From positions 2,688,001 to 2,752,000 of the forward strand of contig OZ242374.1 of the NCBI GenBank assembly GCA_965209055.1: a stretch of DNA of 64,000 bases, in the 5' to 3' direction. The notes beneath the pieces were generated by a model. The model had not been told where the DNA came from and did not search any database. It was given only the letters and a program-made list of their open reading frames with translations. The position numbers were made by a program, and so were the translations under genes. Shown piece after piece: positions 1,400 through 58,141 of this stretch. This DNA comes from Acidobacteriota bacterium. Lineage in GTDB: Bacteria > Acidobacteriota > UBA6911 > RPQK01 > JAJDTT01. The first letter of the stretch is position 1; every line of letters starts with the position of its first letter.

Positions 1400-1417
1400 C
1401 CACCGATCGAACGGGCA

Positions 1418-3898: not shown

Positions 3899-4066
3899 AT
3901 TCCACCAGTTTCCCCAGAAACTTGAACTTGCCCTGGACGCCATTGCCGCGTTGAATGAATACGCCTATCCTCCGTCGTTGGAAAAGAGGGAAGTTCTGTG
4001 GCAGGGGCACCCCCTTGCGGGTGCCCTCTCTTGTGGGTGTCCACCATCGCTGAAGGCAGCAAAGAC

Positions 4067-4882: not shown

Positions 4883-4918
4883 TTACAGGAGTCCGCGCCG
4901 TAGGAATGATCGTAGCGG

Positions 4919-5017
4919 GAAAGTGGGGAATCGAGGACAGATTTTCCCGATTTTGAGGTGCATAGTTGTTCTATTCGCCGAGAAATTGGGGAAATAAGGA
5001 CCGGTTCTACCGCTTTC
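4919..5017. repeat. Long imperfect intergenic inverted repeat (REP-like hairpin) between convergent genes
   Basis: GAAAGTGG-GGAATCG...ATTTTCCCGATTT pairs with AAATTGGGGAAAT...CGGTTCT-A-CCGCTTTC. Confidence 0.45.
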
Positions 5018-5165
5018 ACAGTAGATCAATTTCTGCGGCGCAGGCTCCTATGCCGGCTGTGCATTCATCCAGAACTCGGGGACCTGTCTGAACGACGCGT
5101 TCAGTGCGATCGCCCCGGAGCCGCTCAAGCCGATTTTCTGGAGGCCTCCGCGGGTCACTGGCGTG

Positions 5166-43842: not shown

Positions 43843-44388
43843 TCCGGGCTTTGCCGTCTGGGAAAAGCCCGAATTCCAATGGTCTGACATCGGCATCCCG
43901 CTTGTCTTGTCGGGTTGTGCACATACACTACAAACGAAATATGCAAGGAAAACGCGACCCGGATCCCAAAATGAACTTCCACCCCGGGCTGAGCTTCAGC
44001 CGGGACGAGTATTTGCGCCGGTACCGGCTGGTGATGGACGGAATCCGGAAGGCGGGCGTCGACGCCCTGCTGGTTCGGGGACCCGAGAACATCACCTACC
44101 TCACCGGCTACGAAACCCCCGGCTACTACGGTTACCACTGCCTGATCCTGGTTCCGGGAGAGTCTCCGGTCCTGGTCGGCCGGAGGTTGGAGGTCGGGAC
44201 CAACGTCCCCGAGTTCTCCTGGTTGACCGAGGTCGCTCCGGTGGAGGACGACGAGGTGCCGGTGGAGGTCACCATCCGGACTCTTTCCCGGATGGGCCTG
44301 GCGCGGAAGCGTCTGGGGATCGAATCGGAAGGGGATTATATACTGAATTTGATAGCCCTTGACCCTGCCTCAGCGCTGAGATAGGGTG

Positions 44389-44481
44389 GAGAAAACGTGG
44401 CCCGCAACCGTCGCCTGTTCCTACGGGGAAACGCTCTATCCAGCGCAGGAGTTAACGTACATCGAGGCGCCACGTTTTCTC
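44389..44481. ncRNA. Structured RNA hairpin family 1, copy A
   Basis: 13-bp closing stem GAGAAAACGTGGC/GCCACGTTTTCTC; shares CCGCAACCGTCGCC and GGAGTTAACGTAnATCGAGGC with 51302-51394. Confidence 0.55.
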
Positions 44482-44727
44482 GCTTTGTCCCCTCCTATTT
44501 GACCGCAAGGGCCAAAATCCGATAGGGTGGGAAGGACGGGACAGGCTGCAACACGATTGACGACCCTGCCCCTTCCGTATTGGGGAGGCGAGATCGTACT
44601 CGAAACCTGTGCCCGTCCTTCAAGCGACGGGGCGTGACATTCGAAACCCTGTCTGCCGACGTATCCAGCTCGTCGGCCCTATCCAGGGCAGAGTCGATAA
44701 ACACCGTAGCCCCGTCCCCTCAGGAAT

Positions 44728-44796
44728 GGGGAGCACAAACACCAAGGCTCACACTAACGCAATTAGGCTTGGAGCATCAGTCATTTAAGGCTCCCC
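44728..44796. ncRNA. Structured RNA hairpin family 2, copy A
   Basis: GGGGAG...CTCCCC closing stem; near-identical to 46526-46595 except in the apical region. Confidence 0.55.
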
Positions 44797-45064
44797 GTCC
44801 CTTCCCCGTGAGAACCTGAGCACGACCGAACCAGACCCCACACCTCGCGGGAACACTGGCGAGGACGACAATGACAACGACGAATCAGATTCTCACCACA
44901 GTTCTATAATACGCCCGCCACCTCAAACTTGTCACCCTTCCTCGCTATGCTACCGGACGAAGGGGTCGGGGTGCCTCATGGTGAGGCTGCAGTATTACAC
45001 TCGAAGTCAATCTTGAGGGATAGGATTTCGTGACTTGATGGCCTCGACCCCCTTCTGACTCGTC

Positions 45065-45268
45065 ATGCAAAAGGTCTACGACGAATCGGTCGGTTCGATG
45101 AGTGGGGAGAGATGCGACGTGCCGGGCCGTTATGAGTCGTGCTGTGCTCACCGGGAAGTCAAGTTGATTCGTCGGGGAGAGTTGTTTCCGATCTGTCATC
45201 GTTGTCGTCGGTCGCTGTTCTGGCGTCTCATTCAGAGGATCGACGATGGTCAGCGCAGCGAGAGTTAA
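45065..45268 (+). CDS. Small YjzC-like zinc-ribbon protein (start 45065 or 45098)
   Basis: SGERCDVPGRY-x-CC...RGELFPICHRC...W pattern. Confidence 0.55.
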   Translation: MQKVYDESVGSMSGERCDVPGRYESCCAHREVKLIRRGELFPICHRCRRSLFWRLIQRIDDGQRSES

Positions 45269-45296
45269 AATTGAATTTACTAAGGAGAAGTTAAAC

Positions 45297-45506
45297 ATGA
45301 AGGAAAATCCTGTTCGTCAGTATATTATTGTTCATGACTATGACATTAAGACTCAAGTTATAGCGGATGATCTGACTTATATTACCGATGATAATGATAT
45401 GATGACAGTAACACTCAAATTGAAAGGTGAAACGGTAGGGCATTTTACTAATGTTAAGAATTGGGTCCGGCAAGACCTGACGACCAATGTAGAAGACGAT
45501 ACTTAG
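45297..45506 (+). CDS. Small AT-rich hypothetical protein
   Basis: TAAGGAG RBS; 69 aa; beta-strand-like pattern. Confidence 0.6.
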   Translation: MKENPVRQYIIVHDYDIKTQVIADDLTYITDDNDMMTVTLKLKGETVGHFTNVKNWVRQDLTTNVEDDT

Positions 45507-45548
45507 TACTTGCCTTATCGTCCCTTGCTCAAATAGAATAAACGGCAA

Positions 45549-46109
45549 ATGATGAGCGAGGAATTTCACGAAGAGGATTTCCCTTCCATTGACGATGCTT
45601 ACAAGCTCGCTATGGAGTTCTACGCTTTCGCAATTCAACGGGCTGATGCACTAGACGCGAGAATTCAGTCTGTCATGTCCTTTTCTAGTGCAGTTACGTT
45701 TGCGCTTCCCTTAGCAATCCACAACCTCAGTTTGGACATAAATTCCAACTGGACCCTCGTCTTGGCCGCCTTGATTCTCATAGAGTTAGGTGTCTACTTG
45801 GCGGGCCGTTTCTTTGTGGGTTGGGGGAAATTGGAGGTACTGAGTCCTCTGAAGATTTACAATCAGCATCTACGAAAGGCCCCGGCCGAGTTCAAGAAGG
45901 ACATGATCTACTACGCCGGGCAGTCCTGGGACGAGAACAACCGAAAGATACTGACGCCACGCTGGCGACTAACAGTTACTCTTTCTTTGGTCTTGGCGAC
46001 GAAGGTACTGTTGTTCTTCGCGTGGGTGTTCTATCACTTCTCGTCTCCTCTGTCGGCCGGGGAGCCTGCGGAGGTGGCGGTGGTGGGGCTGAGTCTCCTT
46101 TTTTCATAG
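45549..46109 (+). CDS. 3-TM membrane protein with PycTM/DUF5706-like architecture
   Basis: N-terminal helix RADALDARIQ, TM1-TM2, soluble loop ending ENNRK...RWR, TM3. Confidence 0.6.
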   Translation: MMSEEFHEEDFPSIDDAYKLAMEFYAFAIQRADALDARIQSVMSFSSAVTFALPLAIHNLSLDINSNWTLVLAALILIELGVYLAGRFFVGWGKLEVLSPLKIYNQHLRKAPAEFKKDMIYYAGQSWDENNRKILTPRWRLTVTLSLVLATKVLLFFAWVFYHFSSPLSAGEPAEVAVVGLSLLFS

Positions 46110-46161
46110 CGACAAACCTAGCAGACTTCTGAGTAGTACGCAAGACAGTCTCTTACTTCCC

Positions 46162-46416
46162 TCATTGCTTCTTGACCACCTCAAATCCGAGTCGTTTGAT
46201 CAGAGGAACAGCCTCGTCTGGCGAGAAGTCGCGAGGATGTAGGCTCACTCTAGGGGCGCGTTTTATGGCCTCCGTCACGACATATTTCAACGGGTAGAGC
46301 CTGCGGCCTGATTTGATCCACCAAGCCTTGGCACCACGTATACGGGGCCAGGGCTCGTCTATCGCCTTCAACGCCTTTTCTACGTGATTCCTCTCGATCC
46401 CATCGAATTTGGCCAT
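46162..46416 (-). CDS. Stand-alone ScoMcrA-type N-terminal domain protein
   Basis: IERNHVEKAL...RLYPLKYVV..A...FSPDEA..L..LGFEV; GAGGAG RBS. Confidence 0.65.
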   Translation of the reverse strand: MAKFDGIERNHVEKALKAIDEPWPRIRGAKAWWIKSGRRLYPLKYVVTEAIKRAPRVSLHPRDFSPDEAVPLIKRLGFEVVKKQ

Positions 46417-46525
46417 CTTCAGCTCCTCTCAATTGGTAAGGCTACGCAGACCTCCGGCTAAGTCCATTTTCGAATGCTCAAAAATTAGTCGGAGTTTCTG
46501 CTAAGGTGGGGGGTGAGAAGAAGAC

Positions 46526-46595
46526 GGGGAGTACAAAAACCAAGGCTCACACTAACCACAATTAGACATGGAGCATCAGTCATTTAAGGCTCCCC
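46526..46595. ncRNA. Structured RNA hairpin family 2, copy B
   Basis: Shares ACCAAGGCTCACACTAAC and TGGAGCATCAGTCATTTAAGGCTCCCCG with copy A. Confidence 0.55.
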
Positions 46596-46736
46596 GCCTC
46601 TCAGAGAGCGCGCCCGATAACCATGCCAGCCCACAATCCAAAGCAAAGCTGGTGAGTGCTATTGAGGGGCGACGCCTCATCAACAACTTCATACTACGCC
46701 ACAGCACAACGAAAAAGCGACCCTTCGGCCATGGCC

Positions 46737-48029
46737 TCAAGGCTCTCGACAGGGACAATCTGACGGCGATACGACTTCAGATTCCCCGTTGTTGACTTCA
46801 ACCCAAGTACTCTCGTTCCCAACAAGATTCGGTTGGGCTGGGATCCTGCCGGTAAATCCTTCCTTACGTCTGTACCAGACATGATGGCGCCACCAGAGCG
46901 GAGTGTAAGAGACGTGCAATTCAACGCCCCGTTCCATGAGCGCATGGACGACAGACGCCGATTTTGCTTTGATAGTCTCCCCCGTCCAATCGCTACGGGA
47001 ATCCCGTTTGTAGTCGAGCTCGACGACCGCGACACAACCGAGTGGGCCTCCAGACTCGACATAATGCGTCTGGTGACTCATATAGTAGTCACTCTCTGAA
47101 TGAGAACCCACGGACATATCAGCAATATGCATGCCGTCTTCGACCCATGCGGGATTGCCATTCAGTTTTTGCTGAATGGCCATTTCCCAACCCTTCTCAG
47201 GTGTCGCTGGCGTGCCCCCGAAATAACAACCGTCGGTGCCATTGATCCCAGCTTTCAGACAAATGTCACGCCAATCGGCAGGAGGGCAGTTGCCTTCGCT
47301 AAGACTGGGCGGTCCGTCCCAGAATCGGGGCTCGGACGCCGCATGCCAACGGGCGTTCCCATGCTCAGGGGCAAACGCCTCGACGACTGCGACCTTATAT
47401 CCCCAGTGATGCTCGTCATCGTGCAGTTTGACCACCCATCGTCTGAACTGAGAGACGACCCGTTGTTGTCCATCTAATGGTGGAAGACTGCCCCCACGAA
47501 CGCCGAACAATGTCTCGACCTGGCCTATGAACCCGTAGAAGATTCTGGCGCAGTTCTCTGTCTTCACTACGTCATGGGGGGCAGCGATTGGCGCTTTCGT
47601 AGTCGTAACGTCTTCACACTCGACCTTTGTACGCCAGCCTCCCATGCCAGCTTGTACAACGTGTCTGCCAGGGTCCCAGGTCGTAACGAGTGGATCGGGG
47701 AATGGGATGTTTACAACCGCGAAAAAATGACCGTCGTCAGTACGCATGACACGCCACTGCTCGATCCCTGCGCAACGTTCCGTGCCATTCCTCAGAGTGC
47801 CAATCATGCCCTCCTCGAAGTAGTCGGGCAGTGCGAGAAAGCCCTCGCATTGGTACACGCCATGAGGCAACGGGCCGTAAGCCGTCTCGAAGGCAAACCC
47901 GTTTCCAATAAGACGATTGCCTTGCTGTTCCGTAGTCGTGGCGAGGGAAACGAACGATATGCCGGACGACTCACCCCCTATTCCCATCAATATCAGGAGC
48001 GAAATAAACGACACTCTCACGAATTTCAT
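46737..48029 (-). CDS. Secreted Cys/Trp-rich hypothetical protein
   Basis: Signal peptide, GGAGGAGG RBS, ATGA overlap with the upstream gene. Confidence 0.75.
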   Translation of the reverse strand: MKFVRVSFISLLILMGIGGESSGISFVSLATTTEQQGNRLIGNGFAFETAYGPLPHGVYQCEGFLALPDYFEEGMIGTLRNGTERCAGIEQWRVMRTDDGHFFAVVNIPFPDPLVTTWDPGRHVVQAGMGGWRTKVECEDVTTTKAPIAAPHDVVKTENCARIFYGFIGQVETLFGVRGGSLPPLDGQQRVVSQFRRWVVKLHDDEHHWGYKVAVVEAFAPEHGNARWHAASEPRFWDGPPSLSEGNCPPADWRDICLKAGINGTDGCYFGGTPATPEKGWEMAIQQKLNGNPAWVEDGMHIADMSVGSHSESDYYMSHQTHYVESGGPLGCVAVVELDYKRDSRSDWTGETIKAKSASVVHALMERGVELHVSYTPLWWRHHVWYRRKEGFTGRIPAQPNLVGNESTWVEVNNGESEVVSPSDCPCREP

Positions 48030-48505
48030 TCCCTCCTCCACTCCAACTCGTCAACCTGAGTCTCTAGGTTATTGATTTGCGATTTCAAACGGCGCATTCG
48101 CGCTTGTAATATCGAATTCTGAGCGCGGAGAAACTGCGCCGACTCGAACCCCGTCAGGAACTCCCGGAATTGATAATGACGCACGTCTTTGCCTGAGAAG
48201 TACGCTTTGACTGTGCGTAGGGTGTTTGCAGAGACGGCAAGGGCCGAGCCGTAGGCAATTCCGATTTCCTTGTCGTCAGAATCGAGAATCGTGAAGACAA
48301 CGGCGACAAGCGGCTGATTCCGTCCCCAGCGCCCGTTCTTTATCGTTCCTGTGATCGTGATTCCCGATTCATGGCGTTCGGGTTGATGGGCAATCAACTC
48401 CAAGTGATTTGGGCCACGGAATCCGAGGAAGACAAGCAAAAAGACAACGCCAAATCCAACTACGCTCGCCGAGATGAAAAGTGAGTGTAGTTTCAGCTTC
48501 TTCAT
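48026..48505 (-). CDS. Membrane-anchored FxLYD-like domain protein
   Basis: N-terminal TM, ITGTIKN...VVFTILDSDDKEIG, C-terminal coiled coil. Confidence 0.65.
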   Translation of the reverse strand: MKKLKLHSLFISASVVGFGVVFLLVFLGFRGPNHLELIAHQPERHESGITITGTIKNGRWGRNQPLVAVVFTILDSDDKEIGIAYGSALAVSANTLRTVKAYFSGKDVRHYQFREFLTGFESAQFLRAQNSILQARMRRLKSQINNLETQVDELEWRRE

Positions 48506-48704
48506 AGCGTCTCTTGAATAGGATTCGATTTTCTGGCAGGCTCAAAGAGTTGGGGGTGGGAAGAGGCCAGCCCCCCGAATTGTAACGGGACTGGCCGTAC
48601 CAGAACCCCCTTTCGTCCGGGCATCCGTAACGCTCGACGAATGGGGGCAGTCATTACCTGCTTCCCACAATTGAAATTACGATACGCCACACACCTTGAT
48701 TTTG

Positions 48705-49718
48705 TCATCCTGTCGTCAACGCCAGTAACTCTCTGAGCAATTCGACCAACCGACGAAGGCGCTTGGCGTCCTCTTGATCCTGAGTGTCGGGAATCTGTGC
48801 GATGCCATCCTCTGACGGTCTGTGCGTCTCGAACCAGCCCTGAAACTCGCGAAATAGAGAGACCGTCGTCTCGCCACAAGACGTGACTGCCGAGTCCCAC
48901 GCTGTTTGAAACGTATTTTCCTGCGTGAGAAGTACGTCCTTGTAGAAATTCTCGCCACACCGCTCTTCAACGAAGACCAGGAACAGCCAAGGCTGCCGAT
49001 ACACGCCCCCGAATGAGACCATGGGCGTCGTGCCGACTCCCCAGCAACAGGCGTAGGACTGGGGACGCTCCCCGTCGATTTTGTCCAAGAGCAATTCGAA
49101 CATCTCGTCCCTGTCCGGGCTGTCTCTCCAGCCGTACAGTTCAGCGCCTCCATCTAAGAACCAACTTGGAAATTGGTACGATTGAATGGTCTGCCCCCAT
49201 CCCAGCCGATCCACCATGATTCTGTCCCTCAATGTGTACTGAAGATGGTGGAAGGTTTCGTGCACCACGTTTTTGGCAACGACCGAGTCTGTGTCTTGGG
49301 CCTGTCCAAGTGCTGTCGGCAGGGTGTCGTTAGTCTCAATATGCTCGGTGATCGAACCTGTCGCCGGAAGTCCGATCCACGGGGCGTTGCCGCTGTAATG
49401 AATGGCCTCTCCGATGAGCGCGGTCCACACCGCGCCTGTTTCGTGTCGAAACGTCTCCCCAACGGGTACCAGGTAGATATCGAGTTGCGGCAAAATAATG
49501 GCGTACTCGTCTTCGGCCACTTCGAAGGTGTAGTCGGCCCATTCATGGACGAGTTCGAGGTCGGCCTCATACCGGTCCCGATAGAAGATCGTGTAGGCGT
49601 GCTCGTCGCTTGACGACTCAGACCATCCATCATCGAGTGACGACTGTGAAAATCCTGGAGAGGCGACGAGAATCGAGAGAAAAAGGATGCAGGTCAGGCG
49701 CTGTGCGAATTGAGTCAT
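48705..49718 (-). CDS. Secreted HExxH zinc metallopeptidase (MA/gluzincin-like)
   Basis: Signal peptide from MTQF; VVHETFHHLQ and PSWFLDGGAE. Confidence 0.8.
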   Translation of the reverse strand: MTQFAQRLTCILFLSILVASPGFSQSSLDDGWSESSSDEHAYTIFYRDRYEADLELVHEWADYTFEVAEDEYAIILPQLDIYLVPVGETFRHETGAVWTALIGEAIHYSGNAPWIGLPATGSITEHIETNDTLPTALGQAQDTDSVVAKNVVHETFHHLQYTLRDRIMVDRLGWGQTIQSYQFPSWFLDGGAELYGWRDSPDRDEMFELLLDKIDGERPQSYACCWGVGTTPMVSFGGVYRQPWLFLVFVEERCGENFYKDVLLTQENTFQTAWDSAVTSCGETTVSLFREFQGWFETHRPSEDGIAQIPDTQDQEDAKRLRRLVELLRELLALTTG

Positions 49719-49731
49719 GACAAATCCCCTC

Positions 49732-49800
49732 ATTGTGGTCGAGACGCGGGGGCTTGTCAACGTGGAATTTCTAATACGAAGTAATTCCTTCGTATTAGAA
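49732..49800 (-). promoter_or_regulatory. Sigma70 promoter of the peptidase gene plus upstream 13-bp perfect inverted repeat
   Basis: TTGACA(49755-60)-17-CACAAT(49732-37); TTCTAATACGAAG-6-CTTCGTATTAGAA (49769-49800). Confidence 0.65.
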
Positions 49801-49868
49801 TTCTCATGTGTTAGAATCTCCAACGATGCGCTCGGCTGATAGACTGTCGTACGTGATTGAAGAGAAGG

Positions 49869-49942
49869 CGGCCCCGGCCAGATTCGAACTGACGACCTCC
49901 GTGTTCGGCAAACCGGCGCTCTTTCCACTGAGCTACGGGGAC
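49869..49942 (-). tRNA. Atypical tRNA: Arg-like body, 18-nt anticodon arm (GCC with a bulged A, or 8-nt loop GCCG)
   Basis: GTCCCCG TA GCTC AGTGGAAA GAGC G CCGGT TTGCCGA AC(A)CGG AGGTC GTCAG TTCGAAT CTGGC CGGGGCC G; A20, G73; no encoded CCA. Confidence 0.75.
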
Positions 49943-49983
49943 CACCCCTATTCTATCACCGGTTGGGCGTAGAGTAAGAAAGG

Positions 49984-50069
49984 TGCCCGAGGCGGGATTC
50001 GAACCCGCAAACTCTTGGGGAGTCGCCGGTTTTCTAAACCGGAGCGTATACCAGTTCCGCCACTCGGGC
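49984..50069 (-). tRNA. tRNA with Leu body and Ser anticodon AGA (copy 2)
   Basis: GCCCGAG TG GCG GAACTGGTATA CGC T CCGGT TTAGAAA ACCGG [17-nt variable arm] GCGGG TTCGAAT CCCGC CTCGGGC A; anticodon at 50033-35. Confidence 0.93.
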
Positions 50070-50089
50070 ACTCGACAAGGAGTTTATGA

Positions 50090-50173
50090 TGCCCGAGGCG
50101 GGGATCGAACCCGCACGGCCATTCGGCCGGCAGATTTCTAGTCTGCTGTGTCTGCCGGTTTCACCACTCGGGC
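50090..50173 (-). tRNA. tRNA with Leu body and Ser anticodon AGA (copy 1)
   Basis: GCCCGAG TG GTG AAACCGGCAGA CAC A GCAGA CTAGAAA TCTGC CGGCCGAATGGCCGT GCGGG TTCGATC CCCGC CTCGGGC A; anticodon at 50137-39. Confidence 0.93.
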
Positions 50174-50186
50174 ATCTACTCCTGGG

Positions 50187-50195
50187 AGTCTAGCA
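50187..50195 (-). promoter_or_regulatory. Candidate extended -10 promoter for the tRNA array
   Basis: TG-C-TAGACT, 13 nt upstream of the first tRNA. Confidence 0.5.
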
Positions 50196-50196
50196 C

Positions 50197-50418
50197 ATGC
50201 CGAAACCCGTTGCTCTTCCACCACTTCCGCCTGGAACGACGATGGAGGATATCGCCCGATCGTTGTTTCGGAAATCTACGGGATCAGGACCTCGCGCCAG
50301 CGTCGAGCCCGTTATCGGCCGTCAAGTCTCGATACATGAGGCGACGTCCGACAACGGCCATAACGAGGAGTCTCATCTGATCGAGGGTGTCGAGATTACG
50401 GACGTTGTGCCGACTTGA
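50197..50418 (+). CDS. Small ORF antisense to and overlapping the transposase 3' end
   Basis: GGGAG RBS; Pro-rich N-terminus, then amphipathic TMEDIARSLF helix. Confidence 0.4.
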   Translation: MPKPVALPPLPPGTTMEDIARSLFRKSTGSGPRASVEPVIGRQVSIHEATSDNGHNEESHLIEGVEITDVVPT

Positions 50419-51279
50419 GAACTCCCTCACGTACCGTTCCAAGTGCTTCGGACTCATCTTGTGGAAGGTCCCCGTGTAGGACCGTTTCAGCATGGACCAG
50501 AAGGACTCGATCCCGTTGGTGTGAGCCTGCCCCCGGACATACTCCCCGACCGAATGTCTGACTGCCTCATGGTCGGGCAGCTTGAGGTAGATTCGAGAGT
50601 CGTCTGTGTAAGACTTCGCCCCGGGCTTCACGTGCTCCATAATGAACCGGGACAAGGTTTCACTCGTCACGTTCGAGACTCTCGTTGCCCGGACCTGATT
50701 TGAGGCACGATCCTTGATGCCAACGACCGCCGTCTTGCCGGTCGCTCCCCGTCCGTGCAGTTTGTCACGTTGCTTCTTGTGCATGTTGCGGCGCTTCCCT
50801 CCCAGGTAGACCTCGTCGATTTCGACTGGTCCTGAGAAGGGATCGGGATCACCAGAAAACGCCTCACGGAGCCGATGGGCGAGATGCCACGCCGATTTTT
50901 GAGTGATTCCCAGGTCTCGGTGCAGCTTCATTGACGAGACGCCCTTGAGGCTCGTCATCCACAGATACATGGCGTATGCCCATTTACGGAGGGGTAGTCG
51001 GGAACTCTCCAGAACGGACCCGACTCGGACGGAGAAGTACTTTTTGCAGCCACGACAGCGGTAGGGTTGAGGCTTGCCCGACTTGACCACGTAGGTGTCG
51101 CAGTCTCCGCATCGGGGGCAGGGACGATCCTCGGATTCCTGGCCGGGCACAGCATCGGGCCAGCGGACCGTCTCGAACCACTCGACGGCGGCTTGCTCGT
51201 CGGGGAACAGTTCGGAGAGTTGTAGCAGTGTGATTCCCTTACGATGCGATTTTCCAGGGGCTTTCTTCTTTGTACTCAT
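50284..51279 (-). CDS. IS1595 family DDE transposase
   Basis: Zn ribbon CPRC...CRGC, HTH KGVSSMKLHRDLGITQKSAW, VEIDE, YTDD, HTNGIESFWS. Confidence 0.97.
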   Translation of the reverse strand: MSTKKKAPGKSHRKGITLLQLSELFPDEQAAVEWFETVRWPDAVPGQESEDRPCPRCGDCDTYVVKSGKPQPYRCRGCKKYFSVRVGSVLESSRLPLRKWAYAMYLWMTSLKGVSSMKLHRDLGITQKSAWHLAHRLREAFSGDPDPFSGPVEIDEVYLGGKRRNMHKKQRDKLHGRGATGKTAVVGIKDRASNQVRATRVSNVTSETLSRFIMEHVKPGAKSYTDDSRIYLKLPDHEAVRHSVGEYVRGQAHTNGIESFWSMLKRSYTGTFHKMSPKHLERYVREFSSRHNVRNLDTLDQMRLLVMAVVGRRLMYRDLTADNGLDAGARS

Positions 51280-51301
51280 GACAGGAATTTGCTAAGGTGA
51301 G

Positions 51302-51394
51302 GAGAAGACGTGGGCCGCAACCGTCGCCCGTCTGGTTTCTTTCCAGCTGAGCTACAGACGGGAGTTAACGTAGATCGAGGCACCACGTCCTCTC
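51302..51394. ncRNA. Structured RNA hairpin family 1, copy B, in the transposase 5' leader
   Basis: 12-bp closing stem, internal CCCGTCTG/CAGACGGG stem, core conserved with copy A. Confidence 0.55.
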
Positions 51395-51670
51395 GATTCA
51401 TTGTACTCCAAAATGCGCTTGTGGTATAAGGAGAAACGGGAGGGCGTTCAATCCACCCTGCCCAGCCGCCCCGAGAGGGACGGCCCGGCGTGAGGGACAG
51501 GGTGAAACTTGGCGGCTCGCCGTTCAAGCCCTGGTCCTTGCTACGTGAACGTGCTCTACCACGGGGCCAGGGATCAAACTTGGCGCCCAGCCCTGTTCTG
51601 ACCAGACTGTCGAGGACTCTCGACTCGGGCCGGGACTGAAATGCGAACTCCCTGTATTTTCCCGGAAGTC

Positions 51671-51730
51671 TTGCTGGAACGTCAACCCCTCACGATGCGA
51701 CTTTCCAGGGGCTATCTTCTTTTTCTTCAT
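51671..51730 (-). pseudogene. Truncated second transposase N-terminus
   Basis: MKKKKIAPGKSHREGLTFQQ versus MSTKKKAPGKSHRKGITLLQ of the intact transposase. Confidence 0.75.
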
Positions 51731-51733
51731 GAC

Positions 51734-51777
51734 TTTCCTCACACCGGGAGTATACTAGGTTGTGAGGAAATTGTCAA
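51734..51777 (-). promoter_or_regulatory. Inward near-consensus sigma70 promoter in the right TIR with an RBS-occluding inverted repeat
   Basis: TTGACA(51772-77)-17-TATACT(51749-54); TTTCCTCACA/TGTGAGGAAA arms enclose the -10 and include the GAGGA RBS. Confidence 0.8.
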
Positions 51778-52630
51778 ATTCAGTATATAATCCCCAATCG
51801 GAAAGCTGGTTCCTGACGGTCAACGAGCACCAGGCCCTGGCCGGCGCGCTGCCTCATGCCACGCTGGTCGACTGCTCCAGCGTCATCGAGGAGGCGCGGA
51901 TGATCAAGTCGGCCGAGGAGGTGGATGTGATTCGCCAGGCGGTGGCCATCGCCGACCGGGCGTGTCTGGCTGGGATCCGGGCGACTCGACCGGGGACCAC
52001 CGAGGACCGGATCGCGGCGGCCGTCTACAAGGAATGGTGCGAGGCGGGAGCCGAGTACACCGGACTGCCCAACTTCATTGTTTCGGGGCCCCGGTCAGGC
52101 GCGTGCCATGCCACCTGGCGGGGCCGCCGGCTGGAGGACGACGACCACTGCTGCTTTGAAATCGCGGCCTCCAAGCATCGTTATTGCGGGGCCGTTTTCC
52201 GCATGGCCACGGTGGGCCGGGTGAATCCCCGGCTGCGCCGGCTTTCTGACGCGCAGAACCGGGCCATCCAGGAAGTGATCGACGCCATCCGGCCGGGGGC
52301 CGTTTCGGAAGAGGTGGACCAGGTCGGCCGGGACGTCATCGCCAAGGCGGGGTTCGGCAAGTGGCACGTGAGCCGGCTGGGCTATTCCATCGGCATCAAC
52401 TATCCCCCCGACTGGGGTGAGGGCCAGATCATCAGCATCCGGCAGGGGGAGAAGCGGCGCCTCCACGAGAACATGACCTTCCACCTGGTGGCCGGCGTCC
52501 TCATTCCCGGCGAGTTCGGCAGCGGGTCCAGCGCCTCGGTGCGCGTCACCGCCACCGGCTGCGAGGTGTTGACCTCGCTTCCACTCCAGCTTTACGAGAA
52601 CTGACCGGGGACGGAAATCTACGGCCGCCG

Positions 52631-53914
52631 TCACCGGCTTCGAATGGTCTTGTCCGCGGGTTGGTACCGGTTGCCCAGGTTCCGCCACTCCAACTGTAAG
52701 AACTTGAAGGGTTCGTCTCCCAGCACCTTGTAGCCGTGCTTGGCGTAGCGGGGGCAGAAGATCACGTCCCCGGGGCCCACCTCCCGCTCGAATTCGCCGA
52801 CCTCCCAGATTGCCCGGCCCGAGACCACGATCTCCGCCTGCTCCATGTCGGGATGGTAGTGCACCGGCGTGTAGCCGCCCGGCTCGTACTGGACCAGGGC
52901 GATGATGGCGGCCTCCGAGTTCTTACCCGGAAGCACCAGCCCCACCTGGGAGATCCCGTAGTGGCCTCCCGCCCGCTCCGGGCTCAGCTTGATCAGGGGA
53001 GTCTGTTTCTCCGAGAGGACGTAGCCCACGGTCCGGGCCAGGACCAGATCGGTTGCGCCCTTCCCGTCCAGGTCGATGCCCCCATTGGGCCTCGCCCTCC
53101 AGTTGAAGTCGACCGTTTCGAATCCGAAGCGGAGCACACCGTCCAATCCGGGTCCCGCGTTGGCTACCAGGAGTTCTCCGTCCCGGGTGAACTCCAGTCC
53201 GCGGGGAACGCGGAGGCCGGGGTGGGCCAATGTCCCGTTGGCAATCAGCGCGCCGTCCTGAAGCCGAAGCCGGTGAATCGTGGGTTGGGACTCGTCGGAG
53301 ACGAAGACCTCTCCCCAGGGACTTACCGCGGCCGCCGTCAGCCGGCTGCCCGGCATGGCCAGTGCTTCCTTGGCCTCCAGGGCGCCCGCGTCGTCGCCGG
53401 AAAGCAGGTCGATCCGGTCCGCAGCCACTCCGAAAGCGGCGTAGTCCAGAACGAAGAGGTCCCGATAGCGGTCTCCGGTGGTCCCTTGCAGCCGGGCGAG
53501 ACGCTGACGGTCGCGGTAGTGACCCCCGCCGCTCTCGGAGTAGAGACGGCTGCCACTGCGGAAATTCTGCGCCGTATCGGTCTTCTCCAGCCGCCGGCCG
53601 GCGAGGTCGGAGGCCTGTCCCGGGTTGCCGTCGTACTTCGTCAGGCCGTGTGAACGGCGATACAGCAACCGGGCCGTGGGGCGCTTCTGTCCGTCGTAGG
53701 TGACCAGGATGTTGCCGTCCCGCATTTCCAGCGACTGCGCCGGAAAGACGCCGGGCAGGTCGCGTTCCCGGTAGGCTCGAACCTGCCGGGCGTTTCCTTC
53801 GTCGTCGATGTCGACCTCCAGGATGGCTTCCTCACCCTGGAGGACGAAGAGGCGGTTCTCGGCCCGGCCGGTCAGGGGAAAGAGCAGCAATAGGCAGACG
53901 AAGACACTTCGCAT
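52631..53914 (-). CDS. Secreted protein: beta-propeller-like N-terminus plus C-terminal cupin
   Basis: Signal peptide; PVHYHPDMEQ...G.A...PGDVIFCP...HG cupin motifs. Confidence 0.78.
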   Translation of the reverse strand: MRSVFVCLLLLFPLTGRAENRLFVLQGEEAILEVDIDDEGNARQVRAYRERDLPGVFPAQSLEMRDGNILVTYDGQKRPTARLLYRRSHGLTKYDGNPGQASDLAGRRLEKTDTAQNFRSGSRLYSESGGGHYRDRQRLARLQGTTGDRYRDLFVLDYAAFGVAADRIDLLSGDDAGALEAKEALAMPGSRLTAAAVSPWGEVFVSDESQPTIHRLRLQDGALIANGTLAHPGLRVPRGLEFTRDGELLVANAGPGLDGVLRFGFETVDFNWRARPNGGIDLDGKGATDLVLARTVGYVLSEKQTPLIKLSPERAGGHYGISQVGLVLPGKNSEAAIIALVQYEPGGYTPVHYHPDMEQAEIVVSGRAIWEVGEFEREVGPGDVIFCPRYAKHGYKVLGDEPFKFLQLEWRNLGNRYQPADKTIRSR

Positions 53915-53947
53915 GAGTTCCTCCTGAATTGGGGGGCCGCAGGCCGG

Positions 53948-55306
53948 TTAGCCCAGGACCTCGCCCACGGACTCGGTCATGATCTCGACGACACGATCGA
54001 TTTGCGACCGGCTGATGATGACGGGCGGAGCCAGGCAGAAGACGTCCTGCCGCAGGCGGCTGAAGAGCCCCCGCTCCTGGGCCGCCTGGTGGACCCGGAT
54101 CCCCACCTTCTCGGCGGCGGGGAACTCCGCCTTGGTCGCCTTGTCCTGGACCAGCTCGATTCCGGCCATGAGGCCCAGACCGCGGACCTCGCCCACGTGG
54201 GGATGGCCTCCCAGCGCCGACTGCAGACCGTCCAGCAGGTAGCGCCCCTTCTCGGCAGCCTGGGAGGGGAAGTCCTCTCCCTCGATGATGTCCAGGTTGG
54301 CCAGCGCGACGGCGCAGCCGACGGGGTGGGCGCTGTAGGTGTAGGCGTGCATCCAGGTCGACTTTCCTTCGTCCATGACCTCGGCGATCCGCTCGCTGAC
54401 GCCGATTCCGCCCAGCGGAAAGTATCCGGAGGTCAACGCCTTGGCATACTGGATCATGTCCGGCTCGATGTCCCAGTGCTCCAGGCCGAACATGCGCCCG
54501 GTCCGCCCGAAACCGGTGATGACCTCGTCGGAGACCAGGAGCACGTCGTACCGGTCGCAGATTTCCCGGATGCGCTGAAAATAGCCATCGGGCGGAACGA
54601 TGACGCCGCCGGCGCCCTGGACCGGTTCGGCCAGGAACATGGCCACCGTGTCGGGACCCTCCCGCAGGATGGCCTTCTCCAACTCGTCGGCCGCGGCCAC
54701 GGCGGGGTCGGTGCCCTCCGGGGCCTCGTAGCGGTAGGGGTAGGGGGACGGAACGTGAATGAAACCGGGCACCCGGGGCTCGAACATGGGCCAGTAGGCG
54801 GTGATCCCGGTGGCGCTCATGGCGGCCAGCGTGACCCCGTGGTACCCCCACTGCCTGGAGATCACCTTGGTCTTGTGCGGATAGCCCAGGAGCTTCCAGT
54901 AGTACCGGGCCGTCTTGACGCAGCTTTCGGTGGACTCGCCGCCGCCTGAGGTGAAGAAGAACCTGGAGATGCTCGGGTAGGTGATATCCGAAATCCGCTG
55001 GGCCAGCCGGATGGCGGGCGGGTTGGAGCTTCCGGCGTAACCGGAACAGTATCCCAGTTGCTCCATCTGTCCGGAGGCGGCCCGGGCCAGCTCCCGCCGT
55101 CCGTGGCCGGCCACCACGTTCCAGAGGCCTGCCAGACCGTCGATGTATTCGCGTCCGTCGGCGTCCGTAAGGACGGCGCCTTCCCCTTTGACCCAGACGT
55201 GCCCCCGCTCCTGCAGATTGCGGTCGTGCAGGGGATGGATCAGATGGGCCCGGTCCTGGGTCAGCAGTTCGGTCTTGTTGCTGGTCATGGTTTGGGTGCT
55301 CGTCAT
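53948..55306 (-). CDS. Class III PLP aminotransferase
   Basis: YIDGLAGLW, GYHG, AEPVQGAGG, DEVITGFGRTG, YAKALTSGY. Confidence 0.95.
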   Translation of the reverse strand: MTSTQTMTSNKTELLTQDRAHLIHPLHDRNLQERGHVWVKGEGAVLTDADGREYIDGLAGLWNVVAGHGRRELARAASGQMEQLGYCSGYAGSSNPPAIRLAQRISDITYPSISRFFFTSGGGESTESCVKTARYYWKLLGYPHKTKVISRQWGYHGVTLAAMSATGITAYWPMFEPRVPGFIHVPSPYPYRYEAPEGTDPAVAAADELEKAILREGPDTVAMFLAEPVQGAGGVIVPPDGYFQRIREICDRYDVLLVSDEVITGFGRTGRMFGLEHWDIEPDMIQYAKALTSGYFPLGGIGVSERIAEVMDEGKSTWMHAYTYSAHPVGCAVALANLDIIEGEDFPSQAAEKGRYLLDGLQSALGGHPHVGEVRGLGLMAGIELVQDKATKAEFPAAEKVGIRVHQAAQERGLFSRLRQDVFCLAPPVIISRSQIDRVVEIMTESVGEVLG

Positions 55307-55332
55307 GAAAGGTCCTCCAGAATCGGTTCGCC

Positions 55333-56469
55333 TCAACCGGCGGCTCCGCACCATTGGCGGATCGTCTGTGTGAAGAGTTGGGTGCCCTTCTCGATCTGGT
55401 CCAGAAGGATCCACTCGTCGTGGGTATGGGCTTGGGCGATGTCCCCGGGTCCCAGCACCACCAACCGCTCCAACTCCGTCAGCATGGCGCCGTCAGTGCC
55501 GAAGGCGACGGTCCGGGGGACCCGCCGTCCCGTCAGGTCCAGCGCTTCCTGGACGAAGTCCGAGTCGGGATCCATGTAAATGGGCTTGCCCGTCCAGAGC
55601 GGGTTGAACTCGATTCCGCACTCCTCGGCCTTCTCCTGCGCCCGCCGCATCAGGCCGTCGGCGTCCATGCCGGCCATGGGACGGTAGTAGACGGTGCAGA
55701 TGCTCTGGGCCGCCTTCATGTTCACCACCCGGGTGTGGTCGTTGATCCCGATGTTCCAGCTGATTCCCGGCGGATCAAATTCATCGTTCTGCCACTCGGG
55801 GTCGGCCTCCGTCTCGTCGTGGATGCGCTTCATCTCCGAGAGGAAGGGAATCATGGCCAGGTTGGCGTTGAGGCCCTCGCGGCTGCTGGAGTGGGCCGCC
55901 TTTCCGTGCGAGGTGGCGATGAACCCGTAGGTTCCCTTGTGGGCATAGACCACTTCCAGCATGGTGGGCTCGCCAATGACTCCCCGGGTTCCTCCCTCGA
56001 CCATCTCGCGGAAGAACCGGGATTCGCGGGCCACCGCGGCCGCGCCCCCGTAGCCGATCTCTTCGTCCGAGGTCAGGGTGATGTAGAGGGGCTCCCGGAA
56101 GCGGGCGTCCGAGAACCGGCCCGCGGCCGCAAGCATGCAGGAGATGGACCCCTTCATGTCGCAGGAGCCGCGCCCGAAGAGGCGGTCCCCCTTGATGGTG
56201 GGCTCGAAGGGTCCGTGCTCGTCGGTGAACCAGGTGTCGGCAGGGACCGTGTCGGTGTGGCCGAAGTAGGCCATGCCGCCCTGGCCCTCTCCCCGCTTGC
56301 CCACGATGCTGGCTTTGCGGACTCCGTTGGCGTCGTCGTACTCGATCCGCTCCGTCTCGAAATCCAGGCGTTTCAACGCCTCTTCCACGTAGTCGGCCGC
56401 CGGCAGGTTGGAACGGCTGCTGGTGGTGTTCATGGGAACCAGGTCGTGCAGATAGTCGAGGGCTTCCAT
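55333..56469 (-). CDS. M20 metallopeptidase, acetylornithine deacetylase (ArgE)-like
   Basis: GHTDTV, GRGSCDMKG, DEEIG, GEPT, GPGDIAQAH. Confidence 0.9.
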   Translation of the reverse strand: MEALDYLHDLVPMNTTSSRSNLPAADYVEEALKRLDFETERIEYDDANGVRKASIVGKRGEGQGGMAYFGHTDTVPADTWFTDEHGPFEPTIKGDRLFGRGSCDMKGSISCMLAAAGRFSDARFREPLYITLTSDEEIGYGGAAAVARESRFFREMVEGGTRGVIGEPTMLEVVYAHKGTYGFIATSHGKAAHSSSREGLNANLAMIPFLSEMKRIHDETEADPEWQNDEFDPPGISWNIGINDHTRVVNMKAAQSICTVYYRPMAGMDADGLMRRAQEKAEECGIEFNPLWTGKPIYMDPDSDFVQEALDLTGRRVPRTVAFGTDGAMLTELERLVVLGPGDIAQAHTHDEWILLDQIEKGTQLFTQTIRQWCGAAG

Positions 56470-56596
56470 GGGCTCGCTTCTCCTGATTATTTCGACCCGT
56501 TTATATCACCCGCGCCGGAGCCGGGGGAATCGGCCACCGTGTGTTATTTTCCCTCGTCCGGTGATTTAATCGGCGCAACCCGATAGAGGAGGGATC

Positions 56597-58141
56597 GTGA
56601 AGAAGCTGATTTTGTACACACTGATGACGATCTGGCTGGCGGGACCGCTCTCGCTTTCCTTGTCTGCCGGATCCCACGGCGTTGTCCGGGATGTCGGGTC
56701 GCGTCTGGAACTCTTCGTTGACGACTGGCTGATCGCACGCATGGACAATTTGCGGTTGGCAATGCACCGCCCGCAACCGGCCGAGGTGGCCATCGAATTC
56801 GACCGGCCCTGGGAAGGAGAGTACTCGGCCTACGTGACCGTGTTCCAGGACGGCGACCGGTTCCGGATGTACTACCGGGGCGTGGGGACGGCCGAAGATG
56901 CCAAGCAGGTCTACTGCTATGCCGAGAGCCGCGACGGCGTCCACTGGACGCGGCCCTCGCTGGGTCTGCATTCCCACAACGGCTCCAAGGACAACAACAT
57001 CATCTTGACGGACAAGGGGTCGCACAACTTCGCCCCGTTCAAGGATTCGAACCCCGAAGCTCCGGCCGACCAGCGATACAAGGCGCTGGGAGGAGGTCCG
57101 CTCCTGGTCTTCGCCTCGGCCGACGGCCTGAACTGGAGGCAGGTCCAGGAGGAGCCGGTCATCAGCGACGGCGCCTTCGATTCCCAGAACCTGGCGTTCT
57201 GGGATCCGGAAAGAAAAAAGTACGTGGCCTTCTACCGGGATTTCATCCGCCCCGTTGGAGCCACGTGGAAATATTCGGGTGTGCGAGCCATCAAGACGGC
57301 GACCTCAGCCGATTTCTTCACCTGGACCGAGGGCAAGTACCTGGACTATGAGGACGCGCCCCTGGAGCACTTCTACACCAACGCCATCACGCCCTATCCC
57401 CGGGCGCCGCACATCTATCTGGGTTTTCCCAAGCGCTTCATGCCCACCCGGATCGTCCAGGAATCGGACGAAGCTCTGTTTCAGACCTATTGGAAGGAAC
57501 TGCACGAGCCTGGAAGAGAGGACCGGCTCGAACGGAACCGCAAGCGAGCCGCGGCGGCGGGTCAATCTCTGGAGGAATGGTACCGGATCGCCCTCTTTGG
57601 CGGGGTCTCGGACGCGGTTCTCATCAGCAGCCGTGACGGATATCGTTTCCAGCGGACTTTTCGGGAGGGTTTCGTCCGCGCCGGCCTGGACCAGGGGAAC
57701 TGGGGGCACCGGAACAACATGACGGCCTGGGGAATCCTCCAGACCGGCCCCGAAGAGGTCTCAATCTATCTGGGTGAGCACTATGAGCTGCCCACCTGCC
57801 GGCTGCGCCGCCACACCCTGAGAGTCGACGGCTTCGCCTCCGTCCACGCCGATTTCGGGGGCGGTAGACTCCTGACTCACCCACTCATTTTCGACGGGAA
57901 GGAACTGGTCCTCAACTACTCGACGTCCGCCGTCGGCTACGTGAAGGTGGGCCTGCAGGATGAGTTGGGGCGACCCGTCCCGGGCCTGAGCCTGAACGAA
58001 AGTCCCGAAATCTACGGGGACGAAATCGAGCGCGTGGTCCGTTGGAACGGCGACGGCGACCTGGGCGACTGGTCCGGCAAGAAGGTCCGCCTGGTGTTCG
58101 AGATGAAGGACGCCGACCTCTATTCGATTCGCTTCCGTTAA
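56597..58141 (+). CDS. Five-bladed beta-propeller glycosidase-like secreted protein
   Basis: ELFVDD, YAESRDGVHW, DSQNLAFWD, LRVDGF, DADLYS. Confidence 0.75.
   Translation: MKKLILYTLMTIWLAGPLSLSLSAGSHGVVRDVGSRLELFVDDWLIARMDNLRLAMHRPQPAEVAIEFDRPWEGEYSAYVTVFQDGDRFRMYYRGVGTAEDAKQVYCYAESRDGVHWTRPSLGLHSHNGSKDNNIILTDKGSHNFAPFKDSNPEAPADQRYKALGGGPLLVFASADGLNWRQVQEEPVISDGAFDSQNLAFWDPERKKYVAFYRDFIRPVGATWKYSGVRAIKTATSADFFTWTEGKYLDYEDAPLEHFYTNAITPYPRAPHIYLGFPKRFMPTRIVQESDEALFQTYWKELHEPGREDRLERNRKRAAAAGQSLEEWYRIALFGGVSDAVLISSRDGYRFQRTFREGFVRAGLDQGNWGHRNNMTAWGILQTGPEEVSIYLGEHYELPTCRLRRHTLRVDGFASVHADFGGGRLLTHPLIFDGKELVLNYSTSAVGYVKVGLQDELGRPVPGLSLNESPEIYGDEIERVVRWNGDGDLGDWSGKKVRLVFEMKDADLYSIRFR

Follow-up and report, generated by a model that had tools for sequence, protein, structure and literature searches.

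The DNA analysed here, called the window below, is a stretch of 64,000 nucleotides from the complete genome (6.08 Mb, 62.8% G+C) of an Acidobacteriota bacterium (assembly GCA_965209055.1, contig OZ242374.1, positions 2,688,001 to 2,752,000). It contains a 7,465-bp transposon of the IS1595 family (window 44331-51795) in which the transposase gene is followed by two tRNA genes of mixed identity, having the body of a tRNA-Leu and the anticodon AGA, i.e. that of the Ser codon UCU. Codon 223 of the transposase, located three residues N-terminal of the catalytic residue D226, is TCT and occupies an alignment column that is mostly Val, Ile or Leu (V/I/L). The explanation that we place first, at a rough probability of 0.45, is that this codon may be read as either Ser or Leu through the tRNAs that the element itself carries. 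The features on which the argument turns are as follows.

50284..51279, minus strand: IS1595-family transposase, 331 aa, intact (open reading frame (ORF) list; PF12762 and PF12760 matches)
50611..50613, minus strand: transposase codon 223, TCT (standard reading Ser), in a V/I/L column; matched exactly by the anticodon AGA
50596..50598, minus strand: transposase codon 228, TCT, on an Ala/Ser column (A94 S18 of 120 homologs)
50854..50856, minus strand: transposase codon 142, TCT, on a variable polar linker column (A26 S23 D18 T16 and others)
49982..50069, minus strand: tRNA A, class II tRNA-Leu-type body, A73, anticodon loop UUAGAAA, anticodon AGA (codon UCU) (ARAGORN; Rfam 55.4 bits)
50088..50174, minus strand: tRNA B, second Leu-type tRNA, anticodon loop CUAGAAA, anticodon AGA (ARAGORN; Rfam 51.3 bits over 50090-50173)
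49867..49942, minus strand: Gly-like tRNA, anticodon GCC (ARAGORN; Rfam 47.8 bits)

A serine codon on a hydrophobic column of the transposase

The transposase matches both DDE_Tnp_IS1595 (PF12762; 134.6 bits for a cut-off of 27, residues 149-292) and Zn_ribbon_IS1595 (PF12760; 28.8 bits for a cut-off of 25.4). Residues D155, D226, E258 and K265 each fall on a column that is at least 90% conserved, as does the zinc-ribbon cysteine C75; the other three cysteines of the ribbon, C54, C57 and C78, do not vary at all. The minus-strand sequence of 50619..50596 is GCG AAG TCT TAC ACA GAC GAC TCT, i.e. A-K-S223-Y-T-D226-D-S228, which is the second DDE motif as an earlier note on this DNA had given it; the interval 50596-50613, to which that note had drawn attention, spans S223 to S228. 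The note had also counted three TCT codons in the gene (S142, S223 and S228) and placed every serine of the conserved motifs that it listed on some other codon, and the tally of the 29 Ser codons (TCT 3, TCC 10, TCG 6, TCA 4, AGT 5, AGC 1) bears out both statements. Likewise, the codon table agrees with its remark that TCT lies at least two substitutions away from any Val, Ile or Leu codon.

The residue before YTD had been given in the same note as a V/I/L position of a beta strand, and this proved to hold in three sets of homologs as well as in a structural model. Column 223 is V61 I35 L11 S5 H4 A3 F1 in 120 close homologs (V/I/L in 107/120), V87 I26 L22 K4 A2 T1 N1 S1 M1 with 5 gaps in 150 representatives of 50%-identity clusters, and V119 I27 L21 K2 A2 F2 H1 G1, with Ser in 0, at 175 places in related DNA loci. 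In the AlphaFold2 model of the transposase (predicted local distance difference test score, pLDDT, 91.8) residues 223-225 form a beta strand. S223 is the only serine of the gene to fall on one of the 54 columns that are at least 85% V/I/L/M/F, and no further Ser was found on hydrophobic columns in the query or in its closest homologs. A fold search of the PDB with the transposase returned only weak matches to retroviral integrases (best E-value 2.5e-4, template-modelling (TM) scores 0.24-0.48), which would fit an enzyme with a zinc domain and an RNase-H fold and are uninformative on residue 223.

Five of the 120 homologs have Ser223 as well (P0001, P0002, P0003, P0010 and P0107). P0001-P0003 are 82-90% identical to the transposase and keep S223 in full-length ORFs, and P0010 is a mosaic that is 88% identical to P0003 over residues 195-260 versus 59-65% in two N-terminal segments (50-194). 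On a FastTree tree Ser223 sits on two branches, and two changes are needed to account for it. The DNA encoding these five proteins was not found in genome contigs (best 59% identity), 60 relatives (66%), metagenome contigs (59%) or plasmids (41.5%), and a search of sequencing runs for it returned four runs, from one sample and study, all of which held the window's own sequence.

tRNA genes with a Leu-type body and a Ser anticodon

ARAGORN labels tRNA A and tRNA B as Ser(AGA), going by the anticodon, and both lie well above the Rfam tRNA threshold of 29 bits. Their bodies tell otherwise. They are 87-88 nt long with 5-bp variable-arm stems, as compared to 86-89 nt for the host tRNA-Leu and 90-96 nt for the four canonical host tRNA-Ser. 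The discriminator base is A73 in tRNA A, tRNA B and 10/10 host tRNA-Leu and G73 in 4/4 host tRNA-Ser; in E. coli, A73 is the major Leu determinant. The acceptor stem reads GCCCGAG, versus the GGAG... of the host Ser type, and over nucleotides 1-27 the mean identity of tRNA A is 20.2/27 to the 10 host tRNA-Leu and 12.2/27 to the 4 tRNA-Ser, the corresponding values for tRNA B being 20.1/27 and 10.2/27. The nearest tRNA genes in relatives were tRNA-Leu at 7/7 loci, and close copies of either tRNA were absent from 40 relatives. Going by the anticodon, which is neither NAG nor YAA, the two are not Leu isoacceptors, and they likewise lack the G73, the acceptor stem and the D-arm of a tRNA-Ser, of which only the UCN-box anticodon and the long variable arm are present. 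At the level of sequence, tRNA A and tRNA B thus combine the body identity of one amino acid with the anticodon of another.

Both anticodon loops have U33, A34-G35-A36, A37 and A38. The two genes are only 69% identical (61/86 aligned positions), yet both fold into full cloverleaves, and the pairs 11-24, 27-43, 29-41 and 31-39 are changed on both sides between them, which argues that selection keeps both with the AGA anticodon. CCA is not encoded by either gene; the host has a PolyA_pol/CCA-type enzyme.

Leucyl-, seryl- and alanyl-tRNA synthetases (LeuRS, SerRS and AlaRS) select their tRNAs without the anticodon, and anticodon variants of these tRNAs can mistranslate (PMC11415595); engineered tRNA-Leu(CGA/UGA) reassign TCG and TCA to Leu in E. 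coli (PMC12269064). Given that LeuRS is independent of the anticodon and that the engineered tRNA-Leu provide a precedent, it is therefore a reasonable inference, by analogy, that the element's tRNAs would insert Leu at UCU.

Boundaries and insertion site of the transposon

The ends of the element could be read directly from the sequence.

44323..44330: left copy of the 8-bp target-site duplication, AATCGGAA (read directly)
44331..44352, plus strand: left terminal inverted repeat, GGGGATTATATACTGAATTTGA, 100% complementary to 51774-51795
51774..51795, minus strand: right terminal inverted repeat, 22 bp
51796..51803: right copy of the 8-bp target-site duplication, AATCGGAA

These two are the only occurrences of the GGGGATTATATACTGAATTTGA repeat in the 6.08-Mb genome, even with up to 4 mismatches allowed, and the transposase is present there as a single copy. 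The site of the element is empty in 8/8 genomes of the same genus, in which 44000-44330 directly joins 51796-58000; in two of these (G001 and G004) a single AATCGGAA lies between identical flanks. Taken together, the 22-bp inverted repeats, the 8-bp target-site duplication and the empty site in 8/8 congeners establish that the transposase and the tRNAs are parts of one transposon. The element, with a GC content of 46-59% as compared to 65-68% in the flanks, was recently inserted into a Creatinase_N/Peptidase_M24 gene, which it splits, and it is itself predicted to be mobile. Contigs of 4 runs from one sample cover 44301-51825 with 0 differences. Contigs in 3/4 runs of this sample join 44322 to 51796, i.e. 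show the empty site, a weak finding given that one side of the joint comprises 22 bases, less than the cautionary length of 30. The flank joint (44322/51796) might mean that only part of the population has the insertion, or that there is also a close relative whose site is empty.

In having a DDE domain, an N-terminal zinc ribbon (a feature of all groups of the family except IS1016), terminal inverted repeats and an 8-bp target-site duplication, the element conforms to the IS1595 family, which is described as having 8-bp duplications and one transposase gene with a Zn finger and a DDE domain (PMC8101967). The terminal motif of its inverted repeat, which for this IS1595 lineage is GGGGATTATATAC, bounds the transposase in 111/167 related loci. 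The relatives with the same terminus are mostly 2-5 kb long and therefore carry cargo, too.

Odd tRNAs in sister transposons

A set of 171 related loci was collected from genomes, metagenomes and relatives. A tRNA of any kind lay nearby in 10/80 and 4/91 of the related loci, and several of these tRNAs were odd and lay within inverted repeats of the same terminal type. Two of the loci have a Leu-type tRNA aimed at a codon of another amino acid. The L140 element (771-4044) is bounded by perfect 25-bp inverted repeats (771-795 and 4020-4044) and an 8-bp target-site duplication, ATCTCGTC. Its tRNA, which precedes the transposase by 300 nt, is 87 nt long and of the Leu type and has A73 and the anticodon AGG (Pro CCU; 51.8 bits). 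The L029 element (2633-5650) has 22-nt inverted repeats, an 8-bp direct repeat, AAATTTTC, and an 88-nt Leu-type tRNA with an encoded A73-CCA and the anticodon CGA (Ser UCG; 43.5 bits). The transposases of the three tRNA-bearing elements are 49-58% identical to each other.

When aligned with two ordinary tRNA-Leu, the four hybrid tRNAs share a common Leu-type D-arm, and a diagnostic pattern was built by joining G35-R36-A37-A38 to a preceding D-arm of the Leu type. In the host's order (76 genomes) this pattern matched the window's two genes only, and among 401 genomes of another class the gene of L029 only; the other genomes gave 0/475 (0/75 in the host order and 0/400 in the other class). Elements bearing the pattern number three in 113 non-redundant loci totalling 0.71 Mb. 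A scan of viral contigs gave 2 matches, neither of which is a complete tRNA with an NGR anticodon by ARAGORN.

A second type of cargo tRNA recurs at four loci (L035:3788-3863, L036:3581-3656, L132:5384-5458 and L133:5758-5832). These tRNAs are 75-76 nt long and have a Ser-like D-arm, no long variable arm and U73-CCA; the anticodon is GGA in L035 and L036 (two copies from one metagenome-assembled genome) and UGC in L132 and L133. The L132 transposase has one of its only two GCA codons on a column of I89/V21. The Gly-like tRNA of the window, whose acceptor stem contains a U-C mismatch and whose anticodon stem is irregular, also has a counterpart, a Gly(GCC)-like tRNA with A73 and C at position 33 inside the L085 element (L085:5058-5131). 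Since Leu-type, short Ser-like and Gly-like tRNAs all recur, odd tRNAs are a repeated cargo of this IS1595 lineage.

Several candidates were set aside. A 'tRNA-Ala(AGC)' in L080 was dropped as it scores below the Rfam threshold. At L076, a 98-nt Leu-type tRNA with the anticodon UGG (Pro) adjoins an IS1595 copy (L076:6693-6790, G077:C5:3372865...), yet it was rejected as cargo because it lies 42 bp outside the inverted repeat and is absent from two sister copies. A one-mismatch match to the pattern in the genome that holds L029 (L198, G076:C273:1328-1359) has neither an ARAGORN tRNA nor a transposase, and the tRNAs of L069, L028 and L091 are ordinary host tRNAs outside the inverted repeats.

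As a separate observation, a multi-copy IS1595 homolog (56-57% identical to the query) in three genomes of the genus (G002, G005 and G007) has 2 TGA codons within the match in at least 20 copies. Readthrough, frameshifting or a division into two ORFs are candidate explanations for this conserved in-frame TGA in an apparently active insertion sequence.

Codon placement across the three elements

If only columns that are at least 85% hydrophobic are considered, precisely one Ser or Pro codon is found per transposase in all three elements. In the window this is q223, TCT, the exact cognate of the element's tRNAs (TCT makes up 3/26 scorable Ser codons); in L029 it is q108, TCG, again the exact cognate, on an 87-88% hydrophobic column (5/21 Ser codons are TCG); and in L140 it is q299, CCA, on an L61/I43 column, the exact cognate CCT accounting for 1/12. 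The following tests were devised after the data had been seen and cover three elements only. Exact-cognate matches in 2/3 elements correspond to p 0.052 (conditional), and matches in 3/3 under an inosine-type wobble rule to p 0.069. Among 110 non-redundant relatives without a tRNA, the number with the codon on a column of this kind is 4 for TCT, 7 for TCG and 2 for CCT, and at these background rates the chance of at least 2/3 matches is about 0.004 by our own arithmetic. Rare codons are not enriched on odd columns in this background (TCT 0.25 versus 0.17-0.29 for the other Ser codons). For the Gly-like tRNAs the pooled test gave p 0.59. The signal from codon placement is only suggestive. The earlier note had proposed to look among relatives for TCT at Leu, Val or Ile columns that co-occurs with linked AGA tRNAs, a comparison made here in part, on two elements with other anticodons: L029 has the exact cognate, TCG, on its hydrophobic column, and L140 has CCA, readable by wobble only.

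Discussion

How could a Leu-type tRNA with a Ser anticodon affect the transposase beside which it lies? LeuRS, being blind to the anticodon, would charge tRNA A and tRNA B with leucine, and the charged tRNAs would pair perfectly with UCU and compete with the wobble reading of this codon by the host tRNA-Ser(GGA). Wherever a cell expresses the element, UCU would thus become ambiguous, standing for Ser or Leu, and a fraction of the transposase would receive Leu223, the residue typical of the family, with Ser223 in the remainder. The quality of the transposase might in this way be coupled to the expression of the tRNA cargo, either as a selected throttle or lock or as a drifted dependency in which the linked tRNA masks Leu-to-Ser(UCU) changes. 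As the other UCU codons of the element stand on true Ser positions, the Leu reading would have to stay partial. A more far-reaching version, in which this IS1595 lineage possesses its own codon-reassigning, Leu-accepting tRNAs (AGA, CGA and AGG) and writes an essential hydrophobic residue of the transposase in that private codon, such that the enzyme is fully active only where the tRNA is expressed and a code lock is gained while one host codon becomes ambiguous proteome-wide, strikes us as unlikely.

A number of observations weigh against tRNA-coupled reading of codon 223. First, the position tolerates change, since Ser223 occurs in five homologs and H, A, K, F or G is found at this column in other intact ones; moreover, no S-to-L interchange is seen among the four closest sequences. 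Second, TCT and TCG are used where Ser itself is wanted: S142 and S228 are TCT on columns with Leu in 0/120 and 1/120, the TCT codons of the cargo gene orf337 align to Ser in its sole homolog in 4/4 cases (other Ser codons in 6/17), and L029 uses TCG on a conserved Ser column, too (S 72%). Efficient Leu insertion would therefore damage the element's own proteins. Third, the statistics are modest. For the window alone, the odd Ser being among 3 TCT of 26 scorable Ser codons, p is 0.115; L140 fails the exact-cognate test, its CCA being readable only with inosine-type wobble of A34; q108 of L029 is Ser-tolerant, with Ser in 11/110 background loci and five different codons; and the five Rfam-confirmed odd-tRNA elements, pooled by a 'rare column' criterion (standard amino acid below 5% at the column), give p 0.085, a value that falls to 0.038 only when L080 is added, an element with a tRNA below the Rfam threshold.

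The tRNA-gated transposase put forward in the earlier note consequently survives in part. Its premises are sound, in that the strand column is conserved V/I/L, the tRNAs are cargo of the same element and a Leu-type body is joined to a Ser anticodon; a clean lock is at odds with the non-Leu columns of S142 and S228, with orf337 (TCT on Ser in 4/4), with the TCG of L029 on a Ser column and with the non-V/I/L residues of intact homologs. The note's own caveat that decoding would be ambiguous, not fully reassigned, is upheld by S142 and S228, by the lack of S/L swaps and by the conserved Ser positions of orf337.

Coincidence is the rival that fares best, and we regard it as a strong one, if somewhat less likely than the tRNA-coupled reading. 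Ser223 would then be an ordinary tolerated Ser of a small subclade and the hybrid tRNAs would be irrelevant to the transposase, serving as cargo in some other role (proteome-wide mistranslation, a non-translational use) or in none. The window-only p of 0.115 is compatible with this, as is the occurrence of Ser at the column in 5/120 homologs on two FastTree branches (P0010, however, is a mosaic) and of other non-hydrophobic residues there in 8/120 and 8/175. In the family at large, S or T is found on at least one of the 54 strongly hydrophobic columns in 28/121 members, and Ser on such a column in 25/110 of a wider DNA set. The behaviour of orf337, whose TCT acts as Ser throughout, and the ordinary polar or small positions of S142 and S228 point the same way, and the gene that encodes S223 has evidently transposed, because the inverted repeats are perfect and the target-site duplication is intact. 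However, coincidence offers no account of Leu-type tRNAs with Ser or Pro anticodons in three related transposons versus 0/475 genomes, nor of the fact that 2/3 of the odd codons (3/3 with wobble) are those that the element's tRNA reads; furthermore, codon 223 cannot escape these tRNAs if they decode at all.

Alternatively, S223 might be a damaging lesion in a transposase that is losing its function, with the element stranded and the tRNAs irrelevant. Consistent with such decay, the element is present as a single copy in the genome, its 5' region has undergone rearrangement (47 nt of the gene start occur twice, and the gene is displaced by 451 bp from the promoter in the inverted repeat; see below) and the Gly-like tRNA has stem mismatches. 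Against this stand an intact ORF of 331 codons with D155, D226, E258 and K265 on columns at least 90% conserved, perfect inverted repeats, an intact target-site duplication and an insertion absent from 8/8 congeners, to which the empty-site joint in 3/4 runs of the same sample adds little (weak, with 22 bases on one side). Homologs 82-90% identical keep S223 in full-length ORFs as well. We judge decay to be improbable.

More improbable still is that the AGA tRNAs accept Ser and simply serve UCU decoding for a TCT-rich cargo. TCT indeed makes up 17/88 Ser codons in the cargo compared to 5.5% of the Ser codons in 3,144 long host ORFs, and SerRS, which ignores the anticodon, needs a long variable arm (PMC11415595), such as tRNA A and tRNA B have. 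However, the discriminator is A73 and not G73, the D-arm is of the Leu type, the acceptor stem is GCCCGAG and nucleotides 1-27 match the host tRNA-Leu at 20/27 as opposed to 10-12 for tRNA-Ser, and the same body occurs with a Pro anticodon in L140, which a supply of Ser codons cannot explain. Finally, a private code in which TCT means Leu throughout the element's genes has nothing but the placement of S223 and the two AGA tRNA genes to recommend it and deserves almost no credence: full reassignment was rejected in view of 2/3 transposase TCT codons on non-Leu columns, the absence, in the query and its closest homologs alike, of S/L swaps and of any other Ser at a hydrophobic column, and the 4/4 orf337 TCT codons on conserved Ser.

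The tRNA-coupled reading of codon 223 can be set beside several known systems. Output is tied to an unusual translation event by the tRNA-Leu(UAA) encoded by bldA in Streptomyces and by programmed -1 frameshifting in IS1 and IS3 transposases. Unlike the case made here, these control the amount or the frame of a product and not the identity of a residue at a sense codon, and there is no frameshift site in the present gene. IS1595 elements with passenger genes are alike in their Zn-ribbon and DDE_Tnp_IS1595 domains, in inverted repeats that start with GG, in the 8-bp target-site duplication and in the single transposase gene (PMC8101967), but here the cargo includes tRNA genes whose body and anticodon disagree.

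The closest natural parallel to such tRNAs is the tRNAProX/ProRSx system of Streptomyces and Kitasatospora, i.e. hybrid-identity bacterial tRNAs that all have A34, like the AGA and AGG anticodons here (PMC11415595). tRNAProX combines a Pro body with Ala, Thr or Asn anticodons, has A33 and is encoded adjacent to a dedicated synthetase gene (PMC11415595), whereas the tRNAs described here combine a Leu body with Ser or Pro anticodons, have U33 and are borne by transposons. A synthetase was not found among the 7 cargo ORFs by Pfam; a LeuRS substrate would need none. In the tRNA-Ser(CAG) of the CUG-clade yeasts, a mismatched anticodon likewise causes Ser/Leu ambiguity at one codon, which is tolerated proteome-wide (PMC11415595). 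There, a Leu codon is read as Ser by a chromosomal, ancient and eukaryotic tRNA, whereas here a Ser codon would be read as Leu by a tRNA recently brought in by a mobile element. The engineered tRNA-Leu(CGA/UGA) of E. coli Syn61-delta-3 also insert Leu at UCN and, when mixed with seryl-tRNA, produce ambiguous decoding (PMC12269064), but they were designed as a synthetic firewall against mobile elements (PMC12269064), while in the present case a natural mobile element carries tRNAs of this kind.

The natural hybrid-identity tRNAs on record are few: tRNAProX, the CUG-clade tRNA-Ser and Sec/Cys hybrids (PMC11415595). A literature search, covering papers without their supplements, found none that describes bacterial tRNAs of the Leu type with a Ser or Pro anticodon, and none in which an IS1595 element has tRNAs as passengers. 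We know of no hybrid-identity tRNA that rides on a transposon. The Leu-type tRNAs aimed at a Ser or Pro codon come from three related IS1595 transposons, each of which was found in a different metagenome-derived genome or contig. Should such tRNAs be functional, a mobile element could render a sense codon ambiguous in any cell that it enters, which would bear on horizontal gene transfer, on the stability of the genetic code and on engineered code firewalls that use a Leu-for-Ser swap. And if the transposase depends on its own tRNA, this would constitute a new kind of transposon self-regulation, or a tie between cargo and transposase.

Further features of the element and of the host genome

Read on the minus strand from the right inverted repeat, the element comprises a promoter-like site, a 72-codon ORF, a structured repeat (R'), the transposase, tRNA B, tRNA A, the Gly-like tRNA, seven ORFs, a second copy of the structured repeat (R) and the left inverted repeat. 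The elements outside the transposase and the tRNAs are listed here.

51749..51777, minus strand: promoter-like TTGACA-17-TATACT (11/12), overlapping the right inverted repeat and directed towards the transposase and tRNAs
51524..51742, minus strand: 72-codon ORF, the first ~16 codons of which duplicate the 5' end of the transposase
51301..51398, minus strand: R', the second copy of the structured repeat, immediately before the transposase start (fold -47.3 kcal/mol, z -5.58)
44388..44485, minus strand: R, copy 1 of the 98-nt structured repeat (long hairpin), adjoining the left inverted repeat (fold -45.5 kcal/mol, z -4.84)
44945-45298 (minus), 45246-45506 (plus), 45549-46109 (plus), 46162-46416 (minus), 46737-48041 (minus), 48026-48505 (minus) and 48705-49718 (minus, orf337): cargo ORFs (ORF lists)

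Promoter-like sites number 4 as compared to 0.7 expected in shuffles, a match to the consensus only. A second copy of the first 47 nt of the transposase gene stands 451 bp upstream (51687-51733 versus 51236-51282, 87% identical), and the 72-codon ORF thereby occupies the position at which the transposase starts in relatives, about 50-90 bp from the inverted repeat. With a duplicate of the gene start at the relatives' distance, the full gene has thus been displaced from the promoter in the inverted repeat by an inserted or rearranged segment (51283-51742). R and R' form a direct repeat with 87-90% identity in two outer blocks and a different inner part, which in R' resembles a tRNA acceptor stem and D-arm. 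The stretch that separates the Gly-like tRNA from orf337 contains a palindrome of 25+25 nt (80% complementary, 49760-49809), with which a promoter-like TTGACA-17-CACAAT overlaps.

Across the cargo ORFs the GC content is 46-58%. None of these ORFs has a Pfam match (0/7), and a homolog search with orf434 returned only itself. A single homolog of orf337, 47% identical, was found among 5.8 billion proteins; with a signal-peptide-like N-terminus and an HETFH (HExxH) motif, orf337 may encode a secreted zincin-like protein. The neighbour hydropathy of TCT-encoded Ser, other Ser and Leu in the element's ORFs (means 0.13, -0.29 and -0.15; p 0.21 and 0.32) had no discriminating power.

Separate from the question of the transposon, the host has six tRNA-Leu(TAA) genes though TTA makes up 0.4% of its Leu codons. 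Three of them (G000:C1 477237 [L187], 1991443 and 2524782) lie within repeats of about 4 kb that are 90-93% identical. The proteins encoded in these repeats are an ArdC/zincin-like one and a tyrosine integrase that has an Arm DNA-binding domain, and the repeats are integrative elements that bring in or rebuild the tRNA-Leu(TAA). Lastly, ARAGORN reports a candidate 88-nt 'tRNA-Phe(GAA)' (G000:C1:1718587-1718674, L188:2088-2175), in which the variable arm is long, the acceptor stem poor and the CCA encoded, located 1.2 kb from a 56%-identical IS1595 paralog (1719880-1720830).

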